A stretch of DNA of 64,000 bases from Tubulanus polymorphus. Taxonomy: Eukaryota; Animalia; Nemertea. The DNA is taken from contig NC_134034.1 in the NCBI RefSeq assembly GCF_964204645.1, forward strand, positions 8,010,962 through 8,074,961, given 5' to 3'. This document shows positions 24,901 to 59,195 of this stretch, piece after piece. Under the pieces are notes generated by a model, which saw nothing but the letters and a program-made list of their open reading frames with translations, was not told where the DNA came from and searched no databases. A program made the position numbers and the translations under genes. How positions within the stretch are numbered: the first letter of the stretch is position 1; each line of letters opens with the position of its first letter.

Positions 24901-25780
24901 AGGGCGATGCAATTTCAGGGCACACTAAAGATTCTGTAGCGATCTAATCGCCATCTAGCGATTGAACAAATAATTTAACCACTTCCATATTTCTACAGAT
25001 TTTCTTACCTCCAAAACCTGACACTGTCATTTCTTCTGTCCTGACAGACTTCAAATTCAAAGTCGTTACAAGTTCCTCAGTAACAAAAGATTTAGTTGCG
25101 CCCTCGTCAAAAAGTATATTGGCCTCAACCTGTAGAGTACTGTTGGTGGTACTAGAGACTGGAGCTACAGCAGTTTGCAACAGAACATTAGATATAGAAG
25201 ACGAATTACAATGATAATCATGTGCAGAATTTCCAGAAGGTCCGCAGATGTCAGGCTTTGCAGATATAGAAACTGATGGAGTTTGATCATGTTTACCATA
25301 CTCTAAAACTGGCGTTTGGTTGTTGTTAACTAATGAAGAAGTAGGTTTGCATAATTTAGTACCGTCGGCGTAGCTGCCATTAGAATTTGACTTCGAAGTA
25401 TCGGTAAGACATAAACTTGAATGATGTTTTTTCTGACAGTGCTTACAACGAAACTGTGATGTATATTTACTCGAAATATGACGGCCAAAACAATTGAAAC
25501 ACAAACCCTTCTTCTTTATACATTCAAACCTATCATTTTGGTTGACTACAATCGAACAGTTTGACGGCACGTGACTAGTATTTCCACAGAATACACATGA
25601 CCTGTCCTTACGCCTTTTGTTCTGAGCTGAAGCGATGAAAGCCGACGCCGTGGGTACAGATCTGGAACTAATAAGAGAAATATTAACAACACGTTCTGTA
25701 GAATAAAGAATATCAATTTCTGCTTTCAACGATTTACGCAGAGTACTTATAGGTGGTAAAACAACAGTAGCTGTGCGCAA
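21926..25780 (-). mobile_element. BEL/Pao LTR retrotransposon gag-pol remnant (truncated, with stops)
   Basis: Three Cys/His knuckles (CVFC, CFNC, CKHCQKKHHSSLC), protease ILFDEGATKSF, RT SDIEKAFLQI and YVDN, Pao RNase H FANTSDKAYG and WSDSQV, integrase GIDY, SDN and APWFGGFYERLV. Confidence 0.93.
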
Positions 25781-37960: not shown

Positions 37961-38983
37961 TAAATTCGCTTGAAATCCGGATTTTTAATGCATACAGGCA
38001 GCATAATGAGGAAAACCTATTCACAAACCGTGCAAGCCAACTTAAACACTATGCTCAATATTCCCTGCAAGACGCAAAATATCTTATTTGAACGTTCATG
38101 TATAAAACATGGAGCAACTTTTCTTTTGTCAACACGTTGATGGGCGACGGACTATGGTATTCTCTGAAGGAGGTAAATTAAATTTGACAGCTAGTTATAT
38201 AAATGATGCAGCTTTTGGACAAAAGGGATCTAACTAAATTTCTTTTTAATGCACTGACACTGTGGAATGGAATGGATTGACCCCAATGGCATGCAGTAGG
38301 CCCCTACGTATGGGTCATACTGATTAGCGTCAACCAATTAATCTAAATCGGGCGAACCATTCAACAACTGTGAATAATTTATTTGCTGTGGCGTGATGAT
38401 AATTAGTTTTTTTTTAAAGAAATGACATACCAACTGTTAGGAAAATGTACCGATTCTTATTTTTAGACTACTACTGAATCTATAAAAGGAGGAGTCATAG
38501 ACAAAGTTCATTTGCTTAGCTGGAGACACTTCTTGTCAAGTACATCATCTCAAGTACTGGGTGTTTTGTAAGTTTAATTTCAGTATTTATTTATTAAGTG
38601 CTGTTCCATCGGACCGCAGTGCTTTCAAACTAGGCCCACCCCATAGGCTATGTAGTCCAGGGTGTATTAGCCACTATTCTTTTATATCCTACTAAAATGA
38701 GCGCACCTTTTTCTATTTTTAGATTCAGGCTTAGAATGTGCAAATTCTTTGAGATACTGAGAAATCAGATGGCACCAGTAAACTTCAACTCCGAAATTTG
38801 CAGCAGGATAGCTGAACGACACAATTTTTAAAAATAAAATGGCTATTCGAATGCTATTTCAATAATAACTTGATTCAACCAGAGAGAAATAAGTCAATTG
38901 TGGATGTACAGTACACGCACTTTTCTTCCCTGTTTCCTGGTACCTAATTTTTAGTCTTAAGCTTAGCGATATTCTAAGGTATG

Positions 38984-39155
38984 AGTAATTGTAAGAGTGG
39001 GGTTTCAGATCAGAGGTCGGGAGGTCGAGACACCACTCATCACCACAAGTAATTTTTTTTCCTTATAAATGGGGGAGAATGAACACCAACCAGAAAATAA
39101 TAATGTTAATGAAAATCAATATCATTGTCCATATTGTAAAAAATACATCGATAAA
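38984..39155 (+). repeat. Maverick left TIR (extends into the polB 5' end)
   Basis: Reverse complement of about 56562-56727. Confidence 0.9.
39049..39071 (+). promoter_or_regulatory. Representative copy of the element-wide TAATTTTTTT-N(4-8)-TAAATG gene-start motif
   Basis: GTAATTTTTTTTCCTTATAAATG; related copies at nearly all other gene starts in the element. Confidence 0.75.
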
Positions 39156-42100
39156 TCCCAAAAATCACGACATGAAAAATCTGCAAATCATATAAAAAAT
39201 GTAATAGATTTTGAAACTCCAGAAAATTCCAATGAAAGAAAAGAACGATTAGAAAATATGAATGTGGATGAAATAAAATGTGAAGTTTGTAATGAATTTA
39301 TAATAAAAAGGAATTATAATAGACATCTCAAATCACAAAAACATTATAAAAATTTAAATAAAAATGTTTTAGGATCAGAATATTTTGATAATAAACCTCA
39401 ACAAGTAAAAAAATCAACTTCAAAAACTAAATCCATTTCAAATAAACCTTACATGGAAAATGTTAGAAATTATATTGATTCACTAGAAATAAAAGATACA
39501 ATTGAAATTTTAGAAACATTACATAGTAAAATTGGTCCTGCAGCTATTATATTTAGATTTTTTAAAGGTACAACAATAGAAGATTATAGTAAATTTAATG
39601 AAATAATAGAAAAAATACTGGATTTGATAACAGATGTTGAATATCCAAAAATTAGTATCTCTGGGAAAGTAAGTTTTATAAAGTCAGAAGAAAAGATGAA
39701 TTATAATATTCAAACACTCTCTGAAGAAATAATTTCAAAAACACAAATAAAAGAGAAGTTAGAAAAAATATTAAATGAATTTAAACGTCATATTGAAGAA
39801 AGATATTTTGAGGGTTCTGGCTTAACATTGAATGAAATAATATATTTAGATTTAAATGTTTATAATACAAAAAGAAATAAAACATCAAAAAGTAATAAAA
39901 TGTTTAAAAATGATTCAAACTTTACAACAGAAAAGGATATTAAAGCATCATCTTATATTAAATTACCATTTATAACAAAAGCAGTAATAAATATTCAAAA
40001 TGAAGATAATAAATGTTTTCTATGGTCAATTATTAGTTGCTTACATCCATCACAGGAAAATGTTTGTAGAATAACAGATTATCGGAAATATGAAACATTA
40101 TATAAAATTGATCAATATCCAGTAACTATAAAAATGATTCCTAAAATAGAAAAAGTTAATAATTTAAAAATAAATGTATTCGAATTAATGCAATTACCAA
40201 AGACAAAAGGTGAAAATATTAAAGATTATACACTGGAAGCTTTATATTTAACAGAATATTATGATGATGAAAATGCTATAGATTTGTTATATTATAAAAA
40301 AGATGAAAATGAACATTATATGTGGTTAAAACAAATTGATTTATTCTTTAGAACAACAGAAAGTGATCATCATCGTAAAATTTATCTATGTAGAAAATGT
40401 TTATCTAAATTTATGACTGAGAATGCGTTACTAAAACATAAAGAATTATGTGATAATAAAGATTTTTGTAAATTAATAATACCAACAGAAAAAGATTATA
40501 AATTGAAATTTACTAATCATAAATTTAAGAATATTGTTCCATTTGTAATTTATGGGGATTTTGAATCGTTGAATAAAGAATTAACTAATCAAGATAGAAA
40601 AGAAATATATAACAAAAAGCAATTATTAAAATCAATGGATAAAGGAAATGAATTAAATGAAGACACAATACAAGACCCACCAATTATAAATACAATTAAA
40701 AAAGTTCATCAAAGAGCTGCTGCTTATGGAATTTATATAAAATCAAATTATCCTGAATTATATGAAAGTCAATATATTTCTTTTAGAGGTGAAAATGTAG
40801 TTAATGATTTTTGTGATAAAATGATTGAATTAGAAAGTGATTTTGCAAAATTATTAAACAAAAATAAAAGAATAGTTACGTCAAAAGAAGATGAAATTGA
40901 TTTTATTATGCAACTCATTGTTGTTATTGTGAAAAACGTTTTTATTCATTTGATAAAAAGTTAGAGATCATAATCATTTGAATTCAAAATATCGTGGAGC
41001 TGCTCATGAAGATTGCAATTTACAAGCTAAAAAAGTAAATTTCGTACCAATATTATTTCATAATTTATCAGGATATGATACCCATCTATTTATAAAACAA
41101 TTATCGGGAAAATTGGGCGCAATTAATCAAGAAATAGAAGAATATAATGCTATGAATGAAGCAAATGTAAGAAAATATGATTTTGAACTATTAGCTAAAA
41201 CATCTGAAAATTATATTTCATTTCAATTTGGTTGCATTAGATTTTTAGATTCTTATAGATTTCTAGCAAGTTCATTAGATAATTTATCAAAAAGTTTAGT
41301 TGATAATGATTTTATAATAACTCGATATTATTATCCAAATGACCAAGATTTTAAATTATTGAGATATAAAGGCGCAATTCCTTATTCATTTTATAAAACA
41401 CACAATGATTTTAATGTAACAGAATTATTAAAAGATCAATTTTATGATCAATTAAAAGAGGAGTATGTGAAAGACGAAGTTTTTAATAGAACATTAAATA
41501 TTTGGAACCATTTTAAGATGAAAAATCATGGCGAATTAGTTGATTTATATTTAAAATCAGAGGTTATGATATTGGCTGACATATTTGAAAAATTTAGAGA
41601 AGTTAATTTGAATCATTTTAATGTTGATCCTTGTTATTGCTACTCTAGTCCTGGTTTAACCTGGCAATGTGGTTTAAAATATACAAATGTAGAATTAGAT
41701 TTATTAAAAGAACCAGATATGGTTTTATTATTTGAAAAATCAATTAGAGGTGGAATTAGTGGTGTTATAGGAGATAGATATTTTAAAGCAAATGATGAAT
41801 ATAAATTATTATATATTGACGCCAATAATTTATATAGTTGGGCAATGATGCAACCTCAACCATATAAAAATTTTATATTAACAGAAGTTGAAAATGGTGA
41901 TAAAACTGATTGGGAAAGCGCAATTGCGAGTTTAAAAGATGAAGCACCAATTGGTTATTTCTTTGTAGTTGATTTAGAATATCCTGAAAATATAAAGTTT
42001 TAAACAAGAAACTTACCTTATTGCCCAGAACATTTAACTGTAGATGATAGTTATTTAAGTGAATACCAGAAGAAAATAAAACCGAAAGATCATGTTTTTA

Positions 42101-44134
42101 CAGAAAAATTAATACTTACTCAAAATAATAAATACAATTATATTGTTCATTATAGAATGTTAAAATTTTATCTAAAACAAGGAATGAAATTAAAGAAAGT
42201 ACATAGATATATTGAATATAATCAATCGAAGTGGTTAGAAAAATATATAGATTTCAATACTCAACAGAGAACCATATCAAAAACAGATTTCGAAAAAGAT
42301 TTTTTTAAATTAATGAACAATAGTTTTTATGGTAAAACATGTGAAAATATTAGAAATAGAAATGATATTGAATTAGTAAATAATTCTGAAAGATTAAGAC
42401 ACCTACAATCAAGTCCTAGACATTTAGGAAATAAAAGATTTGAAGATTATTTAACAGCAGTTAAATTAAAAAGAACATCAATGAAATTTAATAAACCTAT
42501 ATTTATTGGTTCGACTGTTTTAGAAGTATCAAAATTATTAATGTATGATTTTTATTATAATGTTTTACAACCACTTTTTGGGGAAAAGCATATTGAAATA
42601 TTATATTTTGATTCTGTAACAGCTGACACCCCAATATTATTAAAATGTAATAATAAAATATTGGTAAGAAGAATTTCAGAAATAATTCCAAAACAAAATG
42701 AATGTTATATTTCATATGGTGAAAAAGAATTAATACAAATAAATGGATTAATGGATGTTTGGACAAGAAATGGATGGAAAAAATTAAAGAATATTATTAG
42801 GCATAAAACAAATAAGAAAATCTATAGTGTTAGAACTAAATTAGGATTTGTAGATGTTACAGAAGATCATAGTTTAATTAAACGAAATGGTGATGAAATA
42901 AAACCAACTGATATAAAAATTGGAGATGAATTATTACATAAAAGATTTTTCCAAAGAATGAATCATATGTCATTTGATGAAATTATTGATAATATTTATA
43001 ATATAGAACCCGAAACATTGGAAGACAAAGAATATTTTATCAAAGGATTTTTCATGGGCGATGGTTCAGCAGGTGTGTATAATTATGTTTGGGGTAATAA
43101 ATATTGTTGGTATTTATGCAATCAAGACTTAAAATTATTAGAAAGAATTAAGAAATTCTGTGAAGAAGTTTATTCACATAAAACATTTAGAATCATGGAT
43201 GTTATGAAATCATCAGCAGTTTATAGAATACTTGTAAATAATCCTAAAGATTTTGCTATAAAATATAATAATGAATTCTATATTCATGCAATAGTGAAAA
43301 GTAATACTTCAACAAAAGAAAAGATAGTTCCAGATTATGTATTAAATGCAAAAAATAATTTAAGAAAATGGTTCTTCATTGGGTTCTATGCTGCAGATGG
43401 TTCAAAAAGTTTCAAAAACCGCAAAACAATATCTTTAGCTCAAAAAAGGAAAAGTTGCTATATCAGGATTGAATATATTATGCAATTCATTAGGTTTTAA
43501 TATGAATATTGGATTTATTAAATCTAAACCAAATTACTTTAATTTAAGCCATGTAGAAAATGAGTTAACAGAAGAAGTTAAAGATTTATTTGAAATATAT
43601 AACCCAACAGATTATGTTTATGATTTATCAACTGAGGATGGTACATTTAACTGTGGATTTCCATTAATAGCGGTCAATACTGATGCGTACATACTAAAAA
43701 TCAAGACAAATGACATAACAAAAGACTTAAAAACATTAAAACATCATTTTGATTTTAGCAATTATCCCAAAGATCATGAACTATTTAGCAATGATAATAA
43801 AAAGATTCCTGGTAAATTTAAAAATGAATTAGGGGGTGATGAAATGATTGAATTTGTTGGGATACGAAGTAAAATGTATAGTTACAGAACAAAAGATCAT
43901 GAAGCTAAAAAGTTAAAAGGAATAACAAAACATGTGGTTGATAAACATATAGAATTTCAAGATTATATAAAGTGTTTATATAAATCAATTGTAATGAAAC
44001 ACAAAATGAATTGTTTAAGATCAGAAGATCATGAGATGTATATTAATGAAGTTGAAAAAAATAGTTTAAATCCATTTGATGATAAAAGGCATATTTTAGA
44101 TGATGGTATAAAAACATTACCTTATGGTTATTAA
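39069..44134 (+). pseudogene. polB: Protein-primed family B DNA polymerase with N-terminal zinc fingers, an EndoVII-like insert and an intein; three lesions
   Basis: Exo I YGDFES, RDHNH...YRGAAHEDCNL, Exo II FHNLSGYD, motif A YIDANNLY, motif B KLMNNSFYGK, motif C YFD/TD split by the intein, KMYS and KKLKGI. Frameshifts near 40901 and 43445; in-frame TAA at 42001. Confidence 0.95.
42613..43678 (+). other. Intein with LAGLIDADG homing endonuclease inserted in PolB motif C
   Basis: YFD|SVTADTPILL (block A), VDVTEDHSL (block B TxxH), IKGFFMGDGS and FIGFYAADGS (LAGLIDADG blocks C and E), YVYDLST (block F), IAVN|TDAY (block G, +1 Thr). Confidence 0.93.
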
Positions 44135-44186
44135 AATGGGTCTATATCATCAAACTCGAAATCACTATTGGCTTCTTCATTTTCAT

Positions 44187-45443
44187 TTAATTGTTTAGGT
44201 TCTTCCATTCCATTTTTTTTTCATTTAAATAAAGTTCTATCTTGTTCCACATTTCATCTCGCTCTCTTTGTTTCTTTTTGTTTGTTAATTCGTCAAATGG
44301 AATTATAATATCTAGGTTTAAATAATTTACAATCTTATTTAAAAAGAATTCATAATTTATTGAATCTGTTATTCTATTTTCCAAATGATACATTAATATT
44401 TGTTTAAATATTTTTTTTATATTTTCCATATCTTCTTCTGTTAATTTAGGTTTTTCATAATAATCGTTAAATAATGAATATAAATACATTTTCTTTTGTT
44501 TTGTGTTAAATGTTGACGGAATAATTGTATTTATAATATCTTTTTTAGTTATTTCACCATTTTTATTTTCTATTATTTTCATTTTTTCAAGCCATTGCAT
44601 ATATTCTGGTGTATGATCTTCTATAGAAAATATTTTAAAAATTTCATCAAGATAATTTAATTTTGGATCTATGAGAAAATTTCTAGTTTTTTCTTCACCC
44701 CATAAATTCTTTTGCCATCCACAATCAACACAAAATAACACAGTACCTTCTTGCCTTAAGGTCGCATAAATACATTGTGGGCATTTTTGTTTATAATTTA
44801 TTGGTAATAGATCTTCTTTAAGCTCTTGGTATTTTCTTACGTTTTCTTTATGTTTTATTGTTCTATTATGTAGATTTGAATTACTTGTTGTAATAATCAA
44901 TTTACAATATTTACAATAATATGTTTTTCTTGTTAATTCATTATATTGTTTTTCTAACTTTTCAACTGTTTCATTATTATCTGGTAACGTTTTCTCATAT
45001 TTTATTTTTTCTAATAAATTATTTTTTCTTTCATTAAATTCAGTTTCAAATTTATTAGAAATTTTATCTATATGTACTTTACGAAATTGATGATTCTCCC
45101 AATCTTCTATATTTTCAGGGCTATATTTTATTCGACAAGGCTCACAGAAATGATCTTTTATATTATCCTTATCATAGAATAAGAAAGGTCTTTTCCAAAT
45201 AACTTCAGGTTCAACTTCGGCAGAATTACTATTACTTTCATTACTATCAACATTAGCCGTTGCGCCATTAATTCTACACTTCTCTGAATGTTTTTTAACA
45301 TAATTTCTTGAGAATAATTTATTACATTTTGGGCAGTTTATTTTAGGGGGTTTATAATTTTCATCATGTTTTTTCATATGTCGAGCCATATTACTTTTTC
45401 TTAGAAGTTCACCACAAATTTCGCATGCTATCTTCTCATCCAT
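44187..45443 (-). CDS. Zinc-finger protein fused to a poxvirus A2/VLTF-3-like late transcription factor domain
   Basis: About four N-terminal C2H2/C2HC fingers; C-terminal CPQC-x13-CVDC ribbon, NF...KLNYL, KIFKQI...SINYEFFLNKI and a terminal W, recalling vaccinia A2 (CxxC-x13-CxxC ... TINYSFFLDKI) as compared from memory; ORF intact. Confidence 0.75.
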   Translation of the reverse strand: MDEKIACEICGELLRKSNMARHMKKHDENYKPPKINCPKCNKLFSRNYVKKHSEKCRINGATANVDSNESNSNSAEVEPEVIWKRPFLFYDKDNIKDHFCEPCRIKYSPENIEDWENHQFRKVHIDKISNKFETEFNERKNNLLEKIKYEKTLPDNNETVEKLEKQYNELTRKTYYCKYCKLIITTSNSNLHNRTIKHKENVRKYQELKEDLLPINYKQKCPQCIYATLRQEGTVLFCVDCGWQKNLWGEEKTRNFLIDPKLNYLDEIFKIFSIEDHTPEYMQWLEKMKIIENKNGEITKKDIINTIIPSTFNTKQKKMYLYSLFNDYYEKPKLTEEDMENIKKIFKQILMYHLENRITDSINYEFFLNKIVNYLNLDIIIPFDELTNKKKQRERDEMWNKIELYLNEKKMEWKNLNN

Positions 45444-45510
45444 TTATTTAGGAAAAATTTTATTAAAATTAATTTTTAGTGATGATGGTAATTTTTTTAT
45501 GTTATAAATA

Positions 45511-46266
45511 ATGGTAGAATTAAAAGAATACAGAATATTTGTTGATTCTAGAAGACTTACTAATTATAAATCACATAATTTACTAGTACAATTAGATAGA
45601 GAATTCAAGAATTGTGTTGATTTAAAATTAATAAATATAAGTTTATGTAACTCATTTTATAATATAACGGCTAAAACTTTTGAACATAGAGACTTTTTAA
45701 TTCATATTGGAAATAAAAATAAATGGTTTCATCTATTTTTAAAACCAGGATTATAAAATTTAGAAACATTAGCCCAAGAAATTAATCAGAAAGCACGATT
45801 AAAACTTGAAAGTGAAGATAAATTTTCAATTAGATTTATAAAAAGTGATAGTTCTGATAAAATTAAAATAAAGTTAGCCAATAAACAAAATAAATTTATG
45901 GTAAACAAACCAATAGCTAAAATGTTAGGAATTAAACCGCGTATTGTTACTGGAAACGTAGAAGGTAGCTCAAATATAATACCTTACACACATTTCTATA
46001 TTTATTGTAATTTAATTGACCCAACAAAAACATTTGAAGCAAGTAAAGATACAATTTGTATTTCTGGTTTATTAAATATTTTACCATTAAAAAATGTCAA
46101 ACAATTTGGAACTCAAATAAATTATAATTTAACTGAATGTGATTTCAAACCTTGCATTCCTAAATTTAATAATTTTAAATTAGAAATAAGAAATCATAAT
46201 GGTTATTTAATTGATTTGAATAACTTTCCTGTGATATATGAATTAGTTATAAGATGTAAAGAGTAA
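45511..46266 (+). pseudogene. Minor capsid (penton) protein with one in-frame stop
   Basis: IFVDSR, NSFYNI, FYIYCNLI, LEIRNHNGYLIDLNN pattern; the two ORFs share a frame and are split by TAA at 45754. Confidence 0.75.
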
Positions 46267-46282
46267 TTTTTTCACTATATAA

Positions 46283-46528
46283 ATGAATATAACTGTTGGA
46301 CCGAGTATATGTTTTGGGTTTGATTTTAAACGTGAGAAAGAAATGAAATTTAACATTAATGATGTAATTACACAAATCAAAAATATTGTATTTTCTAATG
46401 AAACAACATTTAAGTATGAAAAAACAATAGATAAAGAAACTTTAAATGTAGAAAAGATTACTAAATTAATTAGAGAATCTTTAAGATTTTATGAATTAGA
46501 TGAAGATTTTATCATCGATGATATTTAA
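46283..46528 (+). CDS. Maverick hypothetical protein (possibly truncated)
   Basis: ORF starting at the element's conserved TAAATG motif. Confidence 0.55.
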   Translation: MNITVGPSICFGFDFKREKEMKFNINDVITQIKNIVFSNETTFKYEKTIDKETLNVEKITKLIRESLRFYELDEDFIIDDI

Positions 46529-46639
46529 AAAATAATAATTGAAATATATACAAATGAAACTAGTAATGAAATAAATGTTGAATTAATCATAAATAAGTTA
46601 ACTAAATATTTTGAAGATAGTAATTTTTTTGATTAATAA

Positions 46640-46861
46640 ATGAGTGATAATAAGTGGTTAATAACTGGATTATATAATGGAGCATTACTATCAGTTGGAA
46701 CTGTTGGTCATTCAATGGTATTAAAAAAAGTATTCAAAATGGGAAGTGTTAATGTTGATAGATTTGATATAAATGATATTTTAAAATTAACATTAGCAGT
46801 TACTTTATCTAATTTAACAATTGATTATTTGGAAAAACAAAAATATATTCCTCCCATATAA
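46640..46861 (+). CDS. Small hydrophobic Maverick protein
   Basis: TAAATG start; two hydrophobic segments. Confidence 0.65.
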   Translation: MSDNKWLITGLYNGALLSVGTVGHSMVLKKVFKMGSVNVDRFDINDILKLTLAVTLSNLTIDYLEKQKYIPPI

Positions 46862-46885
46862 ATGCATAATTTTTTTACTAAATAA

Positions 46886-47308
46886 ATGGCTTCTGCAATT
46901 ATAACTATTATAGGATCGGCAATTGTTAACGCTTTGGCATTTACTGGTGGTGGATATTTATTTAAACATTTTGATAAAAATAGTTCATTAGGAGAACAAA
47001 GAAGACATAACTTAGCATTAGAGAAATACAATAAAGCAGCAGAAGAATATAGAGAAAAGAGGCAAAACTATATGGATTATATTAACAAAGAATTATATGA
47101 TCAGAAGATTTCACATAGAGATTTTCAATCAGTTGATGATGCAATGAGTTTATATAACGCAGTAACAAATAAAGAAAAATTACATCTATACAAACCTAAA
47201 TTATCAGATTATTTTACCCCAAGTAATGAACAGAAGAAATATGAAATAATTTGGATTTTAGGTGGAACAGTTATTGTTATATTTGTTGCTTATAAGTTTA
47301 ATAATTAG
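46886..47308 (+). CDS. Maverick membrane-associated protein
   Basis: N- and C-terminal hydrophobic helices flanking a coiled coil with EQRRHNLALE; TAAATG start. Confidence 0.7.
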   Translation: MASAIITIIGSAIVNALAFTGGGYLFKHFDKNSSLGEQRRHNLALEKYNKAAEEYREKRQNYMDYINKELYDQKISHRDFQSVDDAMSLYNAVTNKEKLHLYKPKLSDYFTPSNEQKKYEIIWILGGTVIVIFVAYKFNN

Positions 47309-47329
47309 TAATTTTTTTTGCTAAATAAA

Positions 47330-47763
47330 ATGAAGATAAAGTTGATAGTATTGATATCATTCCTCATGATATAAATAAAACTAAATTAAAAATATATTTA
47401 GAAAAACAAATATTAGAATTTGAAAGTGACTTAAAGATAAAAAAGAAAAAATATTTAAAAAGTTAAATTATATATTATTTGATTATAAGTGGTTCGGTTA
47501 CAATTAGTTCTGTAATAACATTTCTAGCAATATTCAGCCCATTAACACCTTTAGCTATATCAATTGGTGTGTTAGGATTAAGTTCAAGTGTTTTAACTGG
47601 CATAAGTTCAAAATTAAATATAAAAAGTAATAAAGAAAAAATTAAAACTAATATAAAAGAAATTAATAAATTAAAGAACACACTAGATTATATCATAAGT
47701 TTAAATGGTCATATAACAGTTGAAGAACAAGATAAATTATTAAAAGAATTAATAAATTATTAA
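47330..47763 (+). pseudogene. Two-TM Maverick protein, disrupted N-terminus
   Basis: Motif-associated ATG at 47330; the open hydrophobic ORF spans only 47479-47763. Confidence 0.55.
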
Positions 47764-47779
47764 TTTTTTTATTAAATAA

Positions 47780-49168
47780 ATGGTAGATAGTTTTCCAAAA
47801 GCTTTCCAATATAATAAATCAATTAAACATAATATTCCAGCAATAGATTTTAATAAAGATATTACATATAGAAATGAAGTTTTAGATTCATTAACTAATT
47901 TAGAAATTTATGTTACTGAAAATAATAATTTTAATGCAAAGATGGAAAATATATTTCATGTATATCTAATTGATTTTAAAAAATTGAAAGATGAAAAACA
48001 GTGGTTATTAAAATCTAATATGAAGTATTGGCAGAACCAATTAAATTTTGCTGTTTATTGTGCAACAACGGGTTGTGGAATTAGTTGGAATGATCATTTG
48101 AATAATTGTAAATATAAATTAATTCAAAGTTTATTTAGATTTCATACATACTTTCAAATCAGAATAATATTAAATGAATTAGAGTGCGCTTTACCAGGAT
48201 CTAGGTATTTTAAAGAATTAGATAATAATATTAATTTATCAAAGTTTTATAAAATTTGTAATGAATTTAATATAGATATAAATAATTCTGATTTTAGAAC
48301 AAAAATTGGAACAATAAGATCACTTCCTTGCCCTAAAAAGATTGCAGAATATTGTGCACTTCCCATACCATCTAATAGTTTGTATAATATCTATAGTCAT
48401 AAATTAGGTTATGGTAAAATAGAAACTAAGGATTTAGAAACATTAAATTTCAATAAATTACCGACATTTTATGATAATTTAAAACAAGAAAACAATAATA
48501 GTTGGGTTTAATTTATTTTAGAAAATAATGAAGGTTTTACAAAATCAGGTATACAAAGAATAAATCAATCTATTAGAACTTATTTGATATGTATTCTAGG
48601 GGCACAAGTTGAAACAAGATCCCCAATAATTGGAAATTTAAATACATCATTTGATACGCAGAAACAATTCAAAGTATTATTTGAAGATTCCATACATAAT
48701 GATAAAAATAGATCGATTCCAGAAAACATTGTAAGATATCAAAATTATTTAGATAAATCACATATTAGATTAAATTATTGTATAGGCCCTAATCTATTAA
48801 TTATTTCTAATGATTTAGTATTAAAGATGGGAAATATAATTGGTTATAATAATCTAATTAAAACTGCAACAATTAATAATTCATTTGGATTGAATGATAT
48901 AAATAAAAAGATTATCACTGCTCCAAAATTAATGGAAGGTGAAAAAATTAAAAAACACATTCAATCAACAGAAACTAAAACTTAGAATATTAAATTAAAT
49001 AATGATTCTGAAATAAAAGATTATAATACTACAGAAAATATTAAAACTGATAATATTCAACATGATATAATTAAAACTGATAATGATAATAAATCCCATG
49101 AAAATACTAAATTAGCTATAACGTGTATAGGAATTGTAATCGGAGGAATATTATATTTTAAATTTTAA
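47780..49168 (+). pseudogene. Maverick protein of unknown function with C-terminal TM; two in-frame stops
   Basis: WQNQLNFAVYCATTGCG and FRFHTYFQIR; single frame with stops at 48509 and 48983, ending LAITCIGIVIGGILYFKF. Confidence 0.7.
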
Positions 49169-49185
49169 TTTTTTTTATTATATAA

Positions 49186-50652
49186 ATGGATGTAGAAGGT
49201 GGAGAAGATATTGGAATGGATAATTTTGATGAACCTGGCATAACTGATGAACAACCACCTGATTTTGATGAAACAAGTTTTAATGATGGTAATGAGCCAG
49301 AATATAATAATAATTTGAATATGCCTGATTATATTAAAAATGCTGAATCACAATTAAATCCTGAAAATTTAGACCCAGATTTAGTAAAACAAGATTTAGA
49401 TAATTTAAACAAAATACCTAAATTAGAACGTATAATTGAAAATTCTAAACTTAACATAAATGATGAAGACGTTGGACTTTTAGTAGATCAATTAAAATTT
49501 TTAGATAATGGTAAATGTTATTATCGTTTGAAAGGTGATTATTATATTGATATCACTTATAAAAATAATAAAAATAAAATATTATCAGAATCAACTTTAG
49601 AAAAATTAAAACCAGATAGAATTAAAATAATAAGTAATAGTAATGAAATAACTGATGTTACACAAAAAGAAATAGATGATAATATAGACGTATTTAAACA
49701 AAGAATTAATGAATTATTTGAAATAATCAAAAAGCAATCAGAAACAGAAACAACTTCTGAACAGAATATAACTTCCAAAAATAGTAAACTTAAATCAAAT
49801 AAAGTTCCAATTGAAAAACTTTTACCGAATGGATTAATTGATGCAACAGATCAACAATTAGAAGATTTAAATATATTTTCTGATGAAGCAATTAGAGAAA
49901 TTATTAGTATAAGAAATGAAGCTGATAAAATTGCACATAATAAAAGTATGAGATCAAAAAATTATGTATTTGGAAAAAGAATTAACTAATTTTTAACTAA
50001 TTCAAATAAAGAAATAGAACAAATAAAGTCTGATTTAGATCATCAAGTAATTGATGAAATAGAATATAGGCAAAAAGAATTACGTTTAGAAAAAGAAATT
50101 AGTAATTTAAAAGATAATTTAGAAGTACAGAAAGAAGAAATTAAATTATTATTAAAATCATATGATTATAATATTAATAGATTAAAAATTATTTTTAAAG
50201 ATTTGTTGATTAAACCAAATTCTGAAATATCATTAAAAGATAGAATAAAGTTATTATTTAAATTAGAAGGAATAACAATTCTTTCAATTCGAACAGCTGT
50301 AACTATGTTATTTACAACAATTGGTTTAGCAATATCAAATGCTTTGAAATCTACTCCTACTCCCAATAAACCGGATAAACCCCCGAATGATAATAATTCT
50401 ATACAAGATAAAGTTAAGGATGGTTCAAAGAAATTAGCAAAATATTTATGGGAACTATCTAAAAAATCTGCTGCAGCTTTACCAGAAATTATTGCATCAA
50501 TTGTATGTTTTATATTGAAATCTGCTGGGAATATTCTTAACTTTGCTGCTGAACATATTGTTTTATTTTTAATTACAGTTGTAAGTGCTATTATTTTTGG
50601 GTTAGTAAATATGATATCAAAAAGATATCAAGAAAAAAATAATAAAAAATAA
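49186..50652 (+). pseudogene. Acidic, coiled-coil protein with a hydrophobic (membrane-active-like) C-terminus; one in-frame stop
   Basis: ORFs 49186-49989 and 50203-50652 share a frame; C-terminal amphipathic/TM helices; lies just upstream of the MCP. Confidence 0.65.
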
Positions 50653-50676
50653 ATAATTAATTTTTTTGTTTAATAA

Positions 50677-51924
50677 ATGAGTGGGAGTTATATAAGTCCT
50701 TCTAAGATTTCTAGAATATCTAATGCTATTAAAGCAGAAAGATCACATCATATAATTACTCATAACCCTTCAAATATTAATCCCGATGAAACTTTATATG
50801 TTAGAATTCCTAGATTAACACAAAATACTTTTTATGTTCCAAATAGTATTTATTTATCAACCGATATAAAAGTAACTGGCCATGATAACAATTATGTTGT
50901 TGATAATGTTGGAAGATATTTGATTAAAAAATTAACTATTAAGATTGGTCCAGAAACAGTTTTCTCATTAGATGATTATAATTTATTTATGCATTATAAA
51001 GATTTATGGTTAACTAAAGAAAATAGAAATAATATTATATTTCAGGGTATTCAATCAGAAAACCATAATAAATTAAGATCAGGAGCTAATGACGCAATAG
51101 TAACTCGTGTCACAGATAATTTGATTAAAAAGATTTATGGAAGCAAATATAAAATTCCATTAGATTTTGAATTGATAAATAATAATGCACCTTTATATAA
51201 ATACGCAATTCAAGAAGATATTATATTTGAGATAACATTTGCTCCTGTAAATGAAATTGTATTATCTAGCGTTGTTAAAGATATGGGTTATAAATTATCG
51301 AATATATGTTTAGAATATAACACAGTAACTAATGAAAATATTGCTAGCACAATTCAAACTCAATACAATCAAGGATTTTCATTATTATATGATTATATTG
51401 ATAAATTTAAAACCGTAACTATTAATGCAAATGATGAAATAATTAATGAGAATATTAACTTCCCGAGAAGATCTATTAAAGGTATATTAATATTTTTTAC
51501 CATTGCAACATATTCTAATGGTGCAATAAAGGTAGATAATTATTATAATCCTGAAATAACAAAAGTAGAAATAACTATCGAAGGAATAGCAAATAAAATA
51601 TTTTGCCAAGGAATGAGAATGATAGATCAGTGGCCAGAAATTAGAAAACATTTTATGAATGAAAAAGTAAAATCATTTGAAAATTGTAATATTAATCAAA
51701 TTGATTATTATACCAGTAATAAATATGCATTATGGTTAGATTTTAGAACAACAGAGGATAATTCATTACATGGTTCTGGAAAAAAACTACAAAACACTAA
51801 AGATGGAATACAATTATTCATGAAAAAGAAAAAAGGAGACAAAAATTTCAAAATGCACATTTATATTATATCTGACGCACAATTAAATATTGTAAATTCA
51901 CAGTTAGATAGTATTCAATATTAG
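50677..51924 (+). CDS. Major capsid protein (double jelly-roll, Maverick type)
   Basis: Intact 415-aa beta-rich ORF with HNPSNINP..LYVRIP, VVDNVGR, YALWLDFR..DNSLHGSG; size and position next to integrase and ATPase. Confidence 0.8.
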   Translation: MSGSYISPSKISRISNAIKAERSHHIITHNPSNINPDETLYVRIPRLTQNTFYVPNSIYLSTDIKVTGHDNNYVVDNVGRYLIKKLTIKIGPETVFSLDDYNLFMHYKDLWLTKENRNNIIFQGIQSENHNKLRSGANDAIVTRVTDNLIKKIYGSKYKIPLDFELINNNAPLYKYAIQEDIIFEITFAPVNEIVLSSVVKDMGYKLSNICLEYNTVTNENIASTIQTQYNQGFSLLYDYIDKFKTVTINANDEIINENINFPRRSIKGILIFFTIATYSNGAIKVDNYYNPEITKVEITIEGIANKIFCQGMRMIDQWPEIRKHFMNEKVKSFENCNINQIDYYTSNKYALWLDFRTTEDNSLHGSGKKLQNTKDGIQLFMKKKKGDKNFKMHIYIISDAQLNIVNSQLDSIQY

Positions 51925-51953
51925 AAATATAAGTTAAAATTAACAATATATAA

Positions 51954-53081
51954 ATTGGAGGTAAAAAAACTCCTAATACTAAAGAACAATATTTAAGAAA
52001 TTTATATTACAACCCTGAGAGTTCGGTTGCTTATTCTTCTACCAAAAATATATGGCGTCAAGTAAAACAAGATAAATTAGATAAGATAATCCCACAAAAT
52101 TTAGTTAAATATAAAGATATAAATGAATTTATGTTAGAACAACCAACATATACAACACATAAGAAAATTGTTAGAAAATATAAAACTCGTAAAACTATGG
52201 TAAGTTATGTAGATCAACAGTGGCAAGTAGATTTAATTGATATGAAAAATGTTAAGAAAGATAATGATGATTATTGGTGGCTATTGAATATAATTGATAT
52301 TTTTAGTCGTTATGTATGGAGCTTCCCACTTTATAGAAAAGATGCTGTACAAACATCAAATGTTTTAAGAAAATTTCTTTCGGATGATAAACTAAAACCA
52401 GAAAAAATACAATTTGATGATGGAAAAGAGTTTGATAATTCACTTGTTCATGAACTCTTAGATAATCATAATATTAATTATTTTTCAACAAAATCGGATA
52501 AAAAAGCAGCAGTTGTTGAACGATTTAATAGAACATTAAGAACAAGAATGTGGAAATATTTTACAGCAAATAATACTTTTAAATGGATTGATGTTTTGCC
52601 AAAATTGATAGAAGGATATAATAATTCTTATCATTATTCTATTGGAATGAAACCTATTGATGCTAGAAAACCTGAAAATGCTGAAATTGTTTGGAATAAT
52701 TTATATGGAGCATTTCTTGTAGATGATTTTGGTGAACCTAAATTTAAAGTTGGTCAAAATGTTAGAATTTCTAAGTATAAAAAGATATTTGATAAAGGAT
52801 ACGATCGAAATTTTACTATAGAAATATATAAAATAAAAAAGGTAATAACAACAAAACCATATGTCTATAAATTAGAAGATTTAGATGGTGAAGAAGTTGA
52901 TGGCTACTTTTACGAAGAAGAATTAAGTTTAACTACTGAAAATCTAGAACAAGAATATAAAATTGAAAAAGTATAAAAAACAAAAACTATTAAAAGAAAA
53001 AAATATTCTTTAGTAAAATGGGTTGGATGGCCAGATAAATTCAATGAATGGATATTATCAAGTAAAATTAAAAATATATAA
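51954..53081 (+). pseudogene. Retroviral-like (rve) integrase with C-terminal chromodomain
   Basis: LYYNP, WQVDLIDM, IDIFSRY, QFDDGKEF, VVERFNRTLR; LVKWVGWPDKFNEWI follows the in-frame TAA at 52974; start codon apparently mutated to ATT at 51954. Confidence 0.92.
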
Positions 53082-53690
53082 ATGAATAAGGAATTATTCA
53101 TATTTGAGCCTCATAATATGTTAATGTCTGGTGTAACAAATTGTGGAAAAACTTATTTTATATTAAATTTATTAGAAACTGTTTATGAAAACTATTTTGA
53201 TAATATAGTATTATTTTGTCCAACATATGAATTTAATCAAACTTATGATAGAAATATTACTAGGAATAATAAATTTATTGTATTAGATCCTAAAACAGTA
53301 AAAGAAAATTTAAATAATTGTATTAAAATAGCAATTGATATTTATAAAGGATCAAATACATTATTTATCATAGATGATTGCGCAAATTTACATGATTCAA
53401 AAGTTAGAGAAAGTGAGTTATGTTATCTAGCTTTCTCTGGGAGACATTTTGGGATAACAACATGGGTTTTAAATCAAAAATATAATTCAATTGTTAAAGA
53501 CTTTAGGGAGAATATAAGATTTCTAGTTTTATTCTACAATAAAGATAGAAAATCAATGAAAAATGCACTTGAGGAAAATGATATTATTCCACATGATTTA
53601 CATAATGAATATATGGATAAGTTGAAAAATATTAAAAGATCAAAATTACTATTTAGATTACAACACCCATTTAAATATGAATTTATTTAA
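53082..53690 (+). CDS. DNA-packaging ATPase (FtsK/HerA, A32-like)
   Basis: Walker A GVTNCGKT, Walker B LFIIDD, GRH...LNQ motif; intact. Confidence 0.9.
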   Translation: MNKELFIFEPHNMLMSGVTNCGKTYFILNLLETVYENYFDNIVLFCPTYEFNQTYDRNITRNNKFIVLDPKTVKENLNNCIKIAIDIYKGSNTLFIIDDCANLHDSKVRESELCYLAFSGRHFGITTWVLNQKYNSIVKDFRENIRFLVLFYNKDRKSMKNALEENDIIPHDLHNEYMDKLKNIKRSKLLFRLQHPFKYEFI

Positions 53691-53945
53691 ATTCAATTAG
53701 TTTGTTAATCTAGTTGAATTCTAGTTATTGGTAGTTGTAACAAAAATCAACTAGATTTTAACAATATTGTAACTAGCTTGTTAATCTAGTTTAATTCTAG
53801 TTACATTCTAGTTGAATTCTAGTTATTGGTAGTTGGAACAAAAATCAACTAGATTTAACAAGAAATAAACAAAAATAACAATATTTCAACTAGCTTGTTA
53901 ATCTAGTTGAATTCTAGTTACATTCTAGTTGAATTCTAGTTGCAA
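53691..53945. repeat. Intergenic tandem array built from ~11-bp CTAGTT-core units
   Basis: Repeated TTCTAGTTGAA, TTCTAGTTACA and AATCTAGTT within larger ~100-120-bp blocks. Confidence 0.8.
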
Positions 53946-53973
53946 CATCACAACTAATTTTTTTGTTATATAA

Positions 53974-54547
53974 ATGGTAGGTGAAAAGAAAATAAAATCT
54001 AAAAATGGTGATGTTCCAATTGAAAAAACTTTAGATGATTTAGGAATAACAGAAAACAAATTAATTCCAGATGATGGTGCTTTAAATAATGTTACAACAA
54101 ATAATAATTATGAATATTATCTTTACTGTAAACATCAATTAGAAATATTAATAGCATCTGGAAAATGTAAAAATTTTGTCGGTAAAAATTTAACTTATAA
54201 TGAATTAGATACAATGAAATCAGATGAAATTTTAGATTATTTAAGATTTATGAAGCCGCGAGAACAGCTAGAATTAATGACGCGATATCAGAAAATGTAG
54301 TAAAAGGTTATAGTAAATTATGTAATTATATTCCGATTCAAAAAATGATTATTTAGTTATGACTGAATTAAATAAATGGATTGGATATTTATCATTTCAA
54401 TTAGGTGGATTTATGACATTATTATCAACTGGGGTTATAACATTTTCAAATATTGAAAGTAAAAATATTTCTATAATAAATGAGCGAGGTGAAAGAAGTG
54501 AAGGAATTAACTGTGAAGAAAAAACCGAGAACTCAGAAACAAATTGA
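53974..54547 (+). pseudogene. Maverick hypothetical protein, frameshifted
   Basis: TAAATG start; ORFs 53974-54300 and 54359-54547 appear to be pieces of one gene. Confidence 0.5.
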
Positions 54548-54824
54548 ATGGTCTCGGCAATTAGGAATTAAATCACAAGAATATAAAAAAGCTGTAAAAG
54601 AAAAAATAAGTAATAAAAATGTTAATAAAAATAGTGAAAATATTGTTATTTCTACTCCTTCTGATAATAGAATATTTGATAAATATTTATATTTTACAGT
54701 TGGATTTGTAATTGTATTCATTTTGATTGGGTGTAATTGGTATAAGAAATCAAATAAAATTCATGATATTAATAATTCTGAAATGCTATCAAAAATGAAA
54801 ATACTTCTGAAATTCCAAAATTGA
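54480..54824 (+). CDS. Basic N-terminus plus single-TM Maverick protein
   Basis: TAAATG start, KKKPRTQKQIEWSRQLG, hydrophobic YLYFTVGFVIVFILIG. Confidence 0.6.
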   Translation: MSEVKEVKELTVKKKPRTQKQIEWSRQLGIKSQEYKKAVKEKISNKNVNKNSENIVISTPSDNRIFDKYLYFTVGFVIVFILIGCNWYKKSNKIHDINNSEMLSKMKILLKFQN

Positions 54825-55971
54825 CAATAAAAAAAATGGATTAATATTTTAGAAAAAAAGCAAAAAAAATAATTTTTTTTAATTAATTGAATATCTCACT
54901 ACTTTTGTCTATCTATGCGGAGCAATTAAATTGTCCAGATAAGTCATTTCGGATTCTAGATATTCATTATTTTTATTAATTTATTTTGTTTTTACTTGAA
55001 TATTGTATTACAGTCGTTTCTTATTATTAGTTTTTTCTTAAATTGAAAGATGGCAGCACTGGGTGTGATGCTAAAATGAATATTTGAATTTGAATTTGAA
55101 TTTGTTTATCAATTAACATAGTAATTGATTACTAATTTGATTAAAAATTATATCATAATTAAGTTAAAAATCCATAATTCATTTATCAGTTTTCATTCTT
55201 ATATTCTTTTCATTCGGAATAATTTATAATTTCAAATTTCATATATTTTTTTAACACCAGCAACATTTACTTAGGTGTTTTAGCTAAGTATATAAGGCAA
55301 TTCATTCAACCACTGGAGTGCCGCCGGGCTTGGCTTGCAGGGGCATTTCGAAAATGCACCTTTGTCCACCCTCCGTGGTTCTCCTTCAGTTTCGACTTTC
55401 GATCCTCCTTTCGGGGGTAAGGGGTTGATAGGAAATGCATTAGGCGCCTTTAATATAATGTGTTTCCTGTCAACCATTGAAGGAGAATTGGTGAGGTGTG
55501 GGTCACAGGGGTGTAATTAGAAATGCTTGGGGATAGGTATCTCGTGGCGCCTCTCAATAACGGGATGCTTATCCCCTAAAAACTCTGTGAGTCAAGTCGG
55601 GTGGTTTTGCTAAAACTTACCGTAAAAACATTGAAATATTCCTTTTAATCACGAGAGAATGATGACTATCCTCCTGTCGTCACGGCCGAGCTAATTTAAA
55701 TAAACCTCGCTTTCAGCAACCAATGAAAACGTGGTGGTTCAATGCCGGCTAACTGGCTTGTGTGTGTTGTATGTACTGCGTGCTTAATATATAACTGCTA
55801 GCTATCCAATATAACAACAACGTTGTGCAACACCTGTTTGATTGATCAATATTTAAATGAAGCACTCTCTTATAATAACATGTAACAGATGTTTGACTGT
55901 ACGATTGTAGTTGTTTATAAAACGACGAAGGTCATTTTGGATTCTAGATATTCATTATTTTTATTTTTTAT

Positions 55972-56298
55972 TTAATCAACAATTTCTAAATCATGATGAC
56001 CATCTTCATTTTTCCCATGATATATTATTTTAAATCCTACTAAATCTTTCAATTCCTCTGTACTCAATGAAACCCATTTATCGGGTAAAAACACTTTAAA
56101 TTCTCGTGATGTACTAACATTACAGTAGCTTAAATTAGCTGATACTTTCTCTCCATATTTAGTTTTTATCTTTTCTAATTTCAATATTTTATGTTCAATT
56201 TCTTTTGTAACATCAACTAACTTTTTTATTTCAAATTGTTTTTTTGCTGGTTTTATTCTGTTATTTATTGTTGCTAAGAATGCTTTTCTATCTCCCAT
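55972..56298 (-). CDS. Small Maverick protein (possible OB-fold ssDNA-binding protein)
   Basis: Intact 108 aa with IKTKYGEKV and KVFLP; preceded by a copy of the TIR/polB upstream sequence. Confidence 0.55.
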   Translation of the reverse strand: MGDRKAFLATINNRIKPAKKQFEIKKLVDVTKEIEHKILKLEKIKTKYGEKVSANLSYCNVSTSREFKVFLPDKWVSLSTEELKDLVGFKIIYHGKNEDGHHDLEIVD

Positions 56299-56466
56299 TT
56301 ATAAGGAAAACAAATTACTTGTGGTGATGAGTGGGGATTACTTCCCCTGTATATAACAAACACGCTATTAACCGTTCTCACCCAAGCCTCACAGCATCTA
56401 TTTATCCAGGTACAGTTAACACACGCGCAGCTGTTGTTACGCGCACTCACTGTTTATGTGTGTCAC

Positions 56467-56727
56467 AATTTTACTGCGTAATATTTCTAAAATTTCAATT
56501 GTATCTTTTATTTCTAGTGAATCAATATAATTTCTAACATTTTCCATGTAAGGTTTATTTGATTTATCAATGTATTTTTTACAATATGGATAATGATATT
56601 GATTTTCATTAACATCAATTTGTTCTGTCTTATTCTCTTCCATTTATAAGGAAAAAAATTATTTGTGGTGATGAGTGGTGTCTCGACCTCTCGACCTCTG
56701 ATCTGAAACCCCACTCTTACAATTACT
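56467..56727 (-). repeat. Maverick right TIR, including an internally deleted copy of the polB 5' end
   Basis: ORF 56437-56643 (VNENQYHYPYCKKYIDKS|NKPYMENVRNYIDSLEIKDTIEILE) matches two separate parts of the PolB N-terminus. Confidence 0.88.
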
Positions 56728-57799
56728 GGTATGCTAGTGGATTTCATTAGAATATGAAGCAATGGAAACAGAATTCTAGCCAGAGTTAAGCGAACTATTG
56801 ATTCTGATATAGCCTAATGTAAGAATTGATTTCCTTTGTGTACTCTTGCAGAATATGTATTATTTCAAGCTGTTAAATAATATAGTTAGACAAACGTCCA
56901 ATTATTGGATCTTTCTTGTTGACTCGTTTAATTTTGTGAGTTAAGAGTTCCACTCAATCCACAATGTGCAGTGCCTAGCCTTCATCTACACTAAAGCCAA
57001 GCCTGTGTATGGGAAAATATCGTTCGACTCCTATAGGCCAGACAAATCAAAGCATGCAATACATTGCGGATAATAGTCTCCGGCAAGTCGAAAGAGAAAG
57101 TAAACCAGGTTTTACCCCGTACCCTACCGGGGAACAAAGACACTTAAAGACTCCTTCCTCCTGGTAGAAATTGTTGAAATATGGCACCCAATCGTAGCAA
57201 TGCTAAGTACACTATATTATGACGGTTGAACCTTTATTAACGAATTTCAATGACACCGAAAATAGAATCAAAATAATCATTAGTTCCATGCTAGCACTTA
57301 ATTTGGGTTATCAGGTTCAGCCTAACTGTACTTTCATTCAGCTACTACTTGTATGAGACTTGGCAATGATAAGTTGCAAGAAATCACCAAACATAAGAAA
57401 AAATATTGTGAATTAATATTACTGTAATTAAGAATTTATTCAAATGAAGTGATAACTTCATTGTTAGATCGTACCGGTATATGCACATAAAACTATGGCA
57501 AAAAACACATCTAACAATCCACGCAATCCGCAATCGATCAAGTCGATCATGACGACGACCTTAAGGCATGTCTCTGTAATCGAAGGTAGAGCATAAAACA
57601 CGGTTCAGGACTCGTCAGCGGACACCGGCCCAGAATGATTTTCAAAACGTGTATTGTCGGTACCTAGCACGATTTCAGCGTTTTTCGGGTATTCCCTGAA
57701 ATTTCGGCGTTTTTCGGAAATTCCCTGAAATTTCAGCGTTTTTATTTCAGCGTTTCAGCTTTTCAGTGTTTCAGCGAAGTTCAGGAACCGTAGAAATAG

Positions 57800-59195
57800 G
57801 TTATACTCTGTACGGTTTTTAGGTAGTCGTAAAGTGGTTTTGAGATTGAGGAATATCTGCAGCTAATTTGGGTCCAATTTCTGTGAAAAAAAGTATTAAA
57901 TCCGTTTGCTATATCTAGTGGATTATTCAAAACCATGTCATCAACAACAAACTTTTCAGGAAAATTTTATTCCTTTTTCTTAGCTAATATTGAATTTACT
58001 AATGACCATTGTTCTTTTAGAATCGATAATGGAAATTGTTGTGAGTAATACATTTTTTTGCAGCTCTGACACAGTTAAAATATAAGTTTCTGTATCTTTT
58101 AAAAGTCAGCTTTGCAGATTGGGATTTTTTTCTAAGGTAGTTTCTTTTAGAGCTTCTTTTCGCTTTGTGGAAGTTAAAAGTCCTTTTGTTATCCATGGGT
58201 TTTTTATCTTTATACTTAGAAAATTTCCTAGTTACATATGGGTTACATATATAGTTACATTTATATCATCAAAATGTTTCGTAAACAATGCTAGAAAAGT
58301 TATTGTAGGACAGATCCACACCATCCACAAACACAGAATTCCAATTCTCTATCATTAGTTTACGTCTGAATTGATTAATATTAGTTTCATTGAATGATCT
58401 ATATGAAACTCGTTTCACTTGGTTGGTATTTTTAACCTTATTCACTAATACGAAAATTGGTAAGTGGTCGGAGACATCAGAGATCATTACGCCTGATCGG
58501 GTTTTATAAGCTTGGGTACAATTACAGAAAATATTGTCAATAAGCGTGGAAGTTGTTTCTGTTATACGGGTTGGTCTATCTATAAGTGGATTAAACGAAT
58601 AGCTATATAAGTCAAGTAAAAAGGTTTCGGTCGGAACATGATTGTTTGACTGAAGAAGGTTAATATTGAGATCACCCACCAGAAAAACTCTAGTATGGCT
58701 CCTTATTCGAGCCAGAATTGTCTTAAAGTCATTGAAAAAGATATTTAAAATATGAGCAAGACCTGGAGGACGGTAAAATATGCCAATTGAGAATTTGTCG
58801 GAGCCATATGAAATTTCTATAAACGCATATTCAACTGATTTAATGGATGGGATAATAAGATCATCTCGAGTTTCATATATCAAAGTATCTTTATAATAGA
58901 AGCCAATACCACCCCCTCTCTGGCCCTCTCTACTTTTAAACATTGAGTTGTATCCACTTAGATTATACAAAGTTGAATTGTCATTACTAGAAACTGTCCA
59001 TGTTTCAGTTATTCCTATAATGTCGGGGGCATAGCACAGTGATTGAAGGTAAACAGTTAGGTGCTCGTAGTTCTTATTTAGGCTTCTTACATTGACATGA
59101 CATATACAAAACCCATGTTTAGAAAAAGTTTTATATTGATCACTAGTATAATATGAGTATTTCTGCTCATTAAGTTCAGTTAATGTGTCTTCCAT
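57800..59195 (-). pseudogene. LINE ORF2 apurinic-like endonuclease and linker
   Basis: HVNVRSL, IIGITETW, GGGIG, YRPPG, GDLNINLL, PTRIT..STLIDNIF, SDHLPIF. Confidence 0.92.

Follow-up and report, generated by a model that had tools for sequence, protein, structure and literature searches.

A LAGLIDADG intein was found in motif C, the catalytic motif, of the polymerase gene of a Polinton, in a window of 64,000 nucleotides (the whole stretch of DNA analysed, to which all positions refer) from what is likely an animal genome. The overall pattern is probably best explained by an intein lineage that resides in Polintons, has a single old origin in giant viruses and is kept by homing into empty copies. 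The type of allele is known, but the kind of host is new: the lineage resides in the polymerases of Polintons, shows polymorphism within families and is integrated in a likely animal genome.

The intein and the element that carries it

The 1066-nt insert extends from the Ser codon that follows ...ILYFD to the Asn codon that precedes TDAYI (positions 42613-43678) and splits YFD/TDA, motif C of the polymerase. The initial annotation had placed it at exactly these coordinates and held that its removal restores YFD-TDA; reads from empty copies indeed jump over exactly 1066 nt. The blocks A, B, F and G and both LAGLIDADG motifs, which it had also listed, were all located in the insert:

42613-43678, + strand: LAGLIDADG intein in motif C of the protein-primed PolB of a Polinton; about 354 residues with an X at the break; frameshifted copy
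42613-42633, + strand: block A with the Ser1 nucleophile, SVTADTP, after extein YFD
42856-42870, + strand: block B (TxxH), VTEDH
43036-43065, + strand: LAGLIDADG motif 1, FIKGFFMGDG
43372-43401, + strand: LAGLIDADG motif 2, FFIGFYAADG
43442-43447, + strand: run of A, site of the frame change in the window copy
43613-43678, + strand: blocks F and G, YVYDLST (43613-43633) and GFPLIAVN (43655-43678), with the terminal Asn followed by extein Thr+1

The length of the insert is not divisible by 3. The N-part of the intein is encoded in ORF 42004-43500 and the C-part in ORF 43439-44134, and the frame shifts from one to the other in the A-run at 43442-43447, as had been proposed from the sequence at the outset. 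At this run 49 of the 74 reads derived from other copies carry an indel relative to the window.

The splice residues (Ser1, terminal Asn and Thr+1), together with the TxxH motif of block B (VTEDH) and block F (YVYD), are those of a class 1 (Asn-type) intein, and the two helices with acidic catalytic residues (GFFMGDG and GFYAADG) are those of a LAGLIDADG (DOD) endonuclease. The position in motif C, between D and T of YxD/TD, is that of a pol-c allele, and the best relatives occupy the same site. Ser1, the terminal Asn and both endonuclease Asp motifs were retained in all 10 full-length alleles compared. A penultimate His is usual in inteins, but not obligatory. The window copy has Val at this position and the relatives have His, Lys or Ser; since Lys, Ser and Val are also frequent among giant-virus-type alleles, the penultimate Val was not counted as defining.

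A Hint-domain match, the lack of which the initial annotation had named as a refutation, was obtained by both profile and fold. The N-part scored 29.8 bits with TIGR01445 (intein_Nterm, cut-off 24.5) and 23.7 with PF14528 (LAGLIDADG_3, cut-off 22.5), and gave a match with an E-value of 7e-6 to PF14890 (Intein_splicing; 26.4 bits, under the cut-off of 35.8). Its sole sequence match in the PDB was the PI-PkoII intein endonuclease. The 77-aa C-part had no Pfam or NCBIfam match and aligned with 64 % to the intact relative P0003. The structural model of P0003 (pLDDT 73.7) matched TliVMA (E 8e-15), PI-PkoII, PI-PfuI and PI-SceI in the PDB, as well as PolB inteins of a phycodnavirus, a pandoravirus, a marseillevirus and a megavirus in BFVD. 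The fold matches also included the PolB of Heterosigma virus, the intein of which reportedly occupies the YGD/TDS pol-c site. Removal of the insert restores a conserved host protein, and natural empty relatives exist at 73-88 % extein identity. The insert was thereby confirmed as a pol-c-type LAGLIDADG intein.

Three other interpretations of the insert were rejected. A Hedgehog-type or bacterial intein-like (BIL) Hint domain does not agree with the presence of an endonuclease, of both exteins and of empty alleles. A spliceosomal intron is excluded by the lack of GT-AG ends and by coding continuity, and an assembly artefact by reads that span the whole insert at a depth of 105-270 and by independent proteins with the same junctions.

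Polintons typically end in terminal inverted repeats with AG...CT termini and are flanked by a 6-bp target duplication, and this end structure is present in the element that carries the intein. The element encodes a protein-primed PolB (PF03175) and a retroviral-type integrase (PF00665), which together define a Polinton in the accessible part of PMC5499653. Of the genes for morphogenesis, the ATPase and a predicted capsid protein are present, whereas an adenain-like protease gave no Pfam match among the element ORFs scanned (44100-56700), several of which are decayed. The features of the element and its flank are as follows:

38984-56727, strand not assigned: Polinton/Maverick element, 17,744 bp, 24 % GC, AG...CT ends, perfect 6-bp target duplication GGTATG
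38984-39180, + strand: left terminal inverted repeat, matching 56539-56727 at 87 % over 197 nt
56539-56727, - strand: right terminal inverted repeat
39069-44134, + strand: pPolB gene with the intein (PF03175)
50677-51924, + strand: predicted double jelly-roll major capsid protein; atlas similarity of 0.97-0.98 to viral capsid clusters, of low value for recognition; no Pfam match
51954-52976, + strand: retroviral-type integrase, rve (PF00665)
53082-53690, + strand: A32-like packaging ATPase (Pfam)
21854-25882, - strand: remains of a BEL/Pao retrotransposon in the flank (PF05380)

Upstream of the intein the polymerase gene is broken twice more, by a change of frame near 40900-40960 and by a stop at 42001-42003, neither of which is mentioned in the initial annotation; other genes of the element also carry in-frame stops. 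The window copy is a decayed fossil, unable to splice or home itself.

The Polinton was inserted into a high-copy host repeat (38950-38983 and 56728-57943), and the uninterrupted target was found in 489 reads. Several genes at 44100-56700 begin behind a common T-rich ...ATAAATG motif (repeat families D3 and D16). The observed/expected ratio of CpG is 0.31 in the intein, 0.58 in the element and 0.75-1.08 in the flanks, a depletion that may reflect methylation-driven decay. The flanks contain BEL/Pao, gypsy, DIRS-like and LINE remains; the DIRS-like retroelement at 5401-10771 is GC-rich, with terminal inverted repeats, a reverse transcriptase, a weak tyrosine-recombinase match and long overlapping ORFs. 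The segment 12561-13046, rich in Pro, Ala and Gln, is a probable terminal exon of a host gene, with a pyrimidine tract and an AG acceptor near 12570.

Filled and empty alleles of the polymerase

Intein-free copies, another point raised by the initial annotation, were present among raw reads that bear the label of the carrier species (read set X6, about 12 % of which was read, and which may derive from another individual or population). Apart from 26 reads that jump exactly 1066 nt, 29 reads lack the insert and have a site that differs slightly, while a further 91 continue from position 42612 into a more divergent C-extein; at the 5' junction of the insert the depth decreases from 497 on one side to 254 on the other. 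In the carrier species the intein is present in about half of the related copies. Since the depth was 0-12 in low-copy flank bins (at 90 % likeness) in comparison to about 200-270 in the first half of the intein (at 85 %), there are likely some tens of filled copies or more. A marine metagenome run of small share (X5) gave scattered short pieces only, which were not taken as evidence of habitat.

Both states were also found within Polinton families. Among the 15 members listed of the 136 in the P0004 cluster, 7 were filled, 4 were empty and 4 had no readable site, and among the 15 listed of the 121 in the P0006 cluster the corresponding numbers were 5 (2 by the C-end only), 1 and 9. In these two families filled and empty exteins were 96-100 % identical. 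The flanks of filled and empty alleles were identical in the P0006 family. In the P0004 family the exteins were 94-100 % alike per 50-residue block (82-100 % for P0136), and 8 of the 16 residues around the insertion site differed between filled and empty alleles. Since the filled flanks are those of the more distant P0192 and P0444 families, they could have been acquired by co-conversion from such a donor, but it could also be that the surviving empty alleles have an altered target. Co-conversion and homing-resistant targets are both expected of an active homing endonuclease, and the observed pattern fits them. Filled and empty copies thus coexist, so that the intein is likely to spread by homing.

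The distribution of the intein was also followed on an extein tree, for which 29 of 132 candidates were left out because they had no usable site and the remaining 103 rows were thinned to 36. Presence and absence on this tree need 6 changes, and monophyly of the filled alleles was rejected (p-AU 5e-51); the number of changes is not lower than with shuffled labels, and such counts cannot tell gain from loss.

In the main polymerase class the intein and extein trees contain the same three sub-clades, and the intein/extein identities run in parallel (62/61, 66/69, 57/49 and 50/44 %). The intein has co-diverged with the Polintons of this class, which fits homing among close relatives and also inheritance with loss. 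The possibility, foreseen in the initial annotation, that the intein tree simply tracks the Maverick PolB phylogeny is partly borne out: the intein tree largely does so within the main class, and two alleles, P0007 and P0470, break the pattern. The first (ENA, 1603 aa) shares 23-28 % of its extein and 45-49 % of its intein with the window, P0003, P0004, P0005 and P0006, and 25 and 41 %, respectively, with P0588; its branch length is 2.86 in the extein tree versus 0.8 in the intein tree. Since the P0007 segment behind the VSR label had no Pfam match, P0007 was assigned to a divergent class by identity alone. A tree in which the main-class inteins are held together without P0007 was not rejected (p-AU 0.40). 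The identities and branch lengths suggest that the intein of P0007 likely jumped into a distant polymerase class.

Could the intein be an old passenger, inherited vertically with the Polinton polymerases and precisely lost many times, with little or no ongoing homing? The congruent trees and parallel identities of the main class would agree with such a history, as would the extein search, in which 90 of the 91 matches with a readable site (out of 120) were empty and 1 was filled. It is nevertheless unlikely in view of the near-identity of filled and empty exteins in two families, the clustering of the P0004-family differences at the insertion site, the presence of the intein in roughly half of the carrier species' related copies, and the endonuclease motifs, which were intact in all 10 alleles, themselves 40-66 % identical. 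In addition, the cross-class case of P0007 requires transfer.

Maintenance by homing into empty copies is therefore the preferred reading, and a mechanism can be proposed on the basis of the canonical chemistry of intein splicing. In an intact copy, an acyl shift at Ser1, attack by Thr+1 and cyclisation of Asn would lead to splicing, rejoining YxD-TD and restoring the active site, so that replication of the element would remain possible. Once released, the endonuclease with its two motifs would cleave motif C in empty sister copies of the same nucleus, whether these are integrated or replicating; repair of the break with a filled copy as template would then insert the intein. Rare jumps may reach distant polymerase classes. 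Since homing needs similar flanks, the intein would spread mostly among close relatives and would thereby co-diverge with sub-lineages, with both states being kept; due to its location in the active site, imprecise loss would be lethal for the element. Splicing, cleavage and homing of the Polinton intein are predicted here from sequence; the splice residues concerned are the same as those named for the mimivirus intein in the accessible part of PMC549080.

The host genome and known inteins

The host is likely an animal, as judged indirectly by the BEL/Pao remains, the polymerase class and a named match from a beetle. BEL/Pao, remains of which lie in the flank (PF05380), is called a metazoan subclass in the part of PMC3118150 that could be consulted, and its look-alikes in the atlas are eukaryotic, with Arthropoda the commonest group. 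The pPolB class of the window element is most abundant in invertebrates according to the accessible text of PMC10748475, and the named extein match comes from Onthophagus taurus. This evidence makes it quite improbable that the intein and the element, both real, reside in a non-animal eukaryote (a protist, alga or fungus), where inteins and contact with giant viruses would be ordinary, even though the exon-like ORF 12561-13043 had no Pfam match, Rfam gave nothing in the window and several of the close polymerases are encoded on short contigs from metagenomes.

The closest known systems are the pol-c inteins of mimivirus and archaea. The accessible part of Ogata et al. 2005 (PMC549080) supports the initial annotation in so far as these inteins occupy the same site (YGD/TDS there, YFD/TDA here); they also share the Ser...Asn/Thr residues, the TxxH motif and a homing endonuclease domain with the window intein. 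The latter differs in its host, the protein-primed PolB of an integrating Polinton, in belonging to a separate clade and in being chromosomal and multi-copy, with both filled and empty alleles. The intein of Chilo iridescent virus, mentioned in the same portion of PMC549080, operates in animal (insect) cells, as that of the window presumably would, but it is of the Gln-type and belongs to a free lytic iridovirus that does not integrate into the host chromosome. The nuclear LAGLIDADG inteins of Prp8, VMA1 (PI-SceI, also a fold match) and RNA polymerase (Green et al. 2018, PMC5784728, consulted in part) are comparable, whereas the window intein lies in a multi-copy endogenous virus-like element of a likely animal genome.

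Nuclease domains have been described in Polinton polymerases before. In-frame HNH and VSR nuclease insertions in pPolB2 were reported by Jeong et al. 2023 (PMC10748475, accessible text), and a single sentence in the available part of Krupovic et al. 2024 (PMC11071308) suggests 'intein invasions' as the origin of the nuclease insertions in Polinton pPolB. These insertions resemble the window intein in that a nuclease domain sits in a Polinton polymerase and mobility between Polintons has been proposed (PMC10748475 and PMC11071308, the same parts). They differ from the window intein, which combines a full Hint domain and splice residues with a LAGLIDADG nuclease, lies in the active site and has precise empty alleles. 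The accessible main text of PMC10748475 contains none of the words intein, Hint, LAGLIDADG and homing, and one of its supplements none of the first three; none of the four occurs in the accessible part of the adintovirus paper PMC8502044, and the portions of PMC12220804 and PMC3671162 available mention inteins in general terms only. The literature searched, which took in few subscription papers and no bioRxiv supplements or Repbase notes, yielded no report of an intein with a Hint domain in Polintons.

Metazoan genomes are without inteins according to the survey in the accessible part of PMC5784728, and if the host is an animal, the window intein would be a chromosomally integrated, multi-copy exception. 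The intein may also serve as a molecular tag showing that Polintons and giant viruses once met within a single cell, and this is relevant to the question of whether animal Polintons live as virophage-like viruses. Since homing would require filled and empty alleles to share a nucleus, and polymerase activity would require splicing, families with filled and empty members provide a test of Polinton expression and recombination in animal germlines. In addition, the lineage newly supplies inteins and LAGLIDADG nucleases, which are presumably functional in animal cells.

Giant-virus neighbours of the Polinton inteins

The intein search matched 253 longer proteins. Ranks 1-5 were inteins of Polinton polymerases at the same site with 47-60 % identity, followed by RNA-primed PolB and TopoII inteins at about 30-42 %. 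The closest other Polinton inteins reached up to 62 % identity to that of the window (75 % for the fragment P0378), and the nearest non-Polinton alleles were giant-virus-type PolB inteins, at the same site, with 43-45 %; the identity of the window extein to giant-virus-type PolBs was 22-25 %. A profile built from Polinton inteins, and hence biased in their favour, matched 269 shorter proteins; 122 of these were examined, and 71 were nearest to Polinton alleles, mostly as broken pieces on long ENA contigs. In a search of 50 %-representatives with 1907 matches, 141 of the 150 listed were new rows (125 RNA-primed PolB, 1 TopoII, 1 protein-primed and 14 unclassified), and four more fragments of the Polinton clade were among the matches listed. 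Viral contigs scanned with the intein N-part, P0003 and P0016 gave no loci, and the metagenome contigs scanned gave two loci only, at 22 % identity, which were not used. The intein alignment contained no stretch conserved enough for pattern scans.

An intein was present in 33 of 163 proteins with a Polinton-type extein, and 32 of the 33, the window included, belong to one Polinton clade. The junction pattern missed 25 of 120 intein matches, and 21 near-duplicates and 8 inteins shorter than 300 aa were dropped before a quick tree of 89 rows was built, in which all 6 Polinton inteins formed one clade (SH-aLRT 100). In a careful tree of 57 rows, 10 of the 11 Polinton inteins grouped together (support 100/100), next to RNA-primed PolB inteins (support 93/69, not starred). 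The sister protein P0018, with an RNA-primed PolB intein, is encoded at 100 % identity on the contig of a giant-virus MAG (GVMAG). The window intein therefore lies in a Polinton-specific clade beside the PolB inteins of giant viruses. The careful trees were calculated under LG+G4, with no mixture model, and since they have no true outgroup, the direction from giant virus to Polinton was deduced from the nesting of the Polinton clade in a much larger diversity. On this basis the Polinton lineage is likely to have derived once, long ago, from giant-virus PolB inteins.

P0470 (JGI, 477 aa) is a Polinton-type polymerase with a motif-C intein nearest to giant-virus-type alleles. This intein falls off the group of its extein (p-AU 0.006), and its joining the main clade was not rejected (p-AU 0.46). 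P0470 is a possible second entry, and crossings may accordingly recur.

The initial annotation had proposed that the intein homed in from a co-infecting large DNA virus, crossing from an RNA-primed to a protein-primed polymerase. The crossing itself agrees with the nearest non-Polinton relatives being RNA-primed PolB inteins. Since the intein lies in a Polinton clade and its tree mirrors the polymerase tree of the main class, with matched GC and differing viral sites, the crossing is old, and the later spread was among Polintons rather than by a fresh jump into the window element. Recent direct homing from such a virus into the window element or its immediate family is accordingly very improbable and largely refuted: the giant-virus-type alleles at the same site and the virus-like allele of P0470 speak for it, but other Polinton inteins are closer and form one clade with the window, the base composition is fully matched to the element (25.2 % GC in the intein versus 24.3-24.8 % in the element, with GC and GC3 of the intein matching the exteins), and the target sites of two giant-virus genes differ from the window site at 7 and 6 of 18 nt.

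A broader reading of the old Polinton lineage would be an ongoing natural gene drive among the Polinton copies of animals, with turnover of target sites at the polymerase active site, jumps between the two large classes of Polinton polymerases, entry from giant viruses on more than one occasion and a family of 55 nearly free-standing intein ORFs. It is put forward tentatively, as plausible but somewhat short of an even chance.

The same broad intein family was also encountered in type II topoisomerases (with two copies in P0008), in an ADP-ribosylglycohydrolase-domain protein and, in the alga Chloropicon primus, in DNA polymerase delta, for the most part at D/TD-like sites (set P0008, P0112, P0114, P0116, P0117, P0038 and P0085). 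In the 55-member cluster, found on long ENA contigs, P0445, P0558, P0559 and P0561 are ORFs of 362-365 aa on different contigs that consist almost entirely of the intein, with about 11 N-extein and 4-7 C-extein residues; they could be free-standing genes of an intein/endonuclease family, or else a subfamily in decay.
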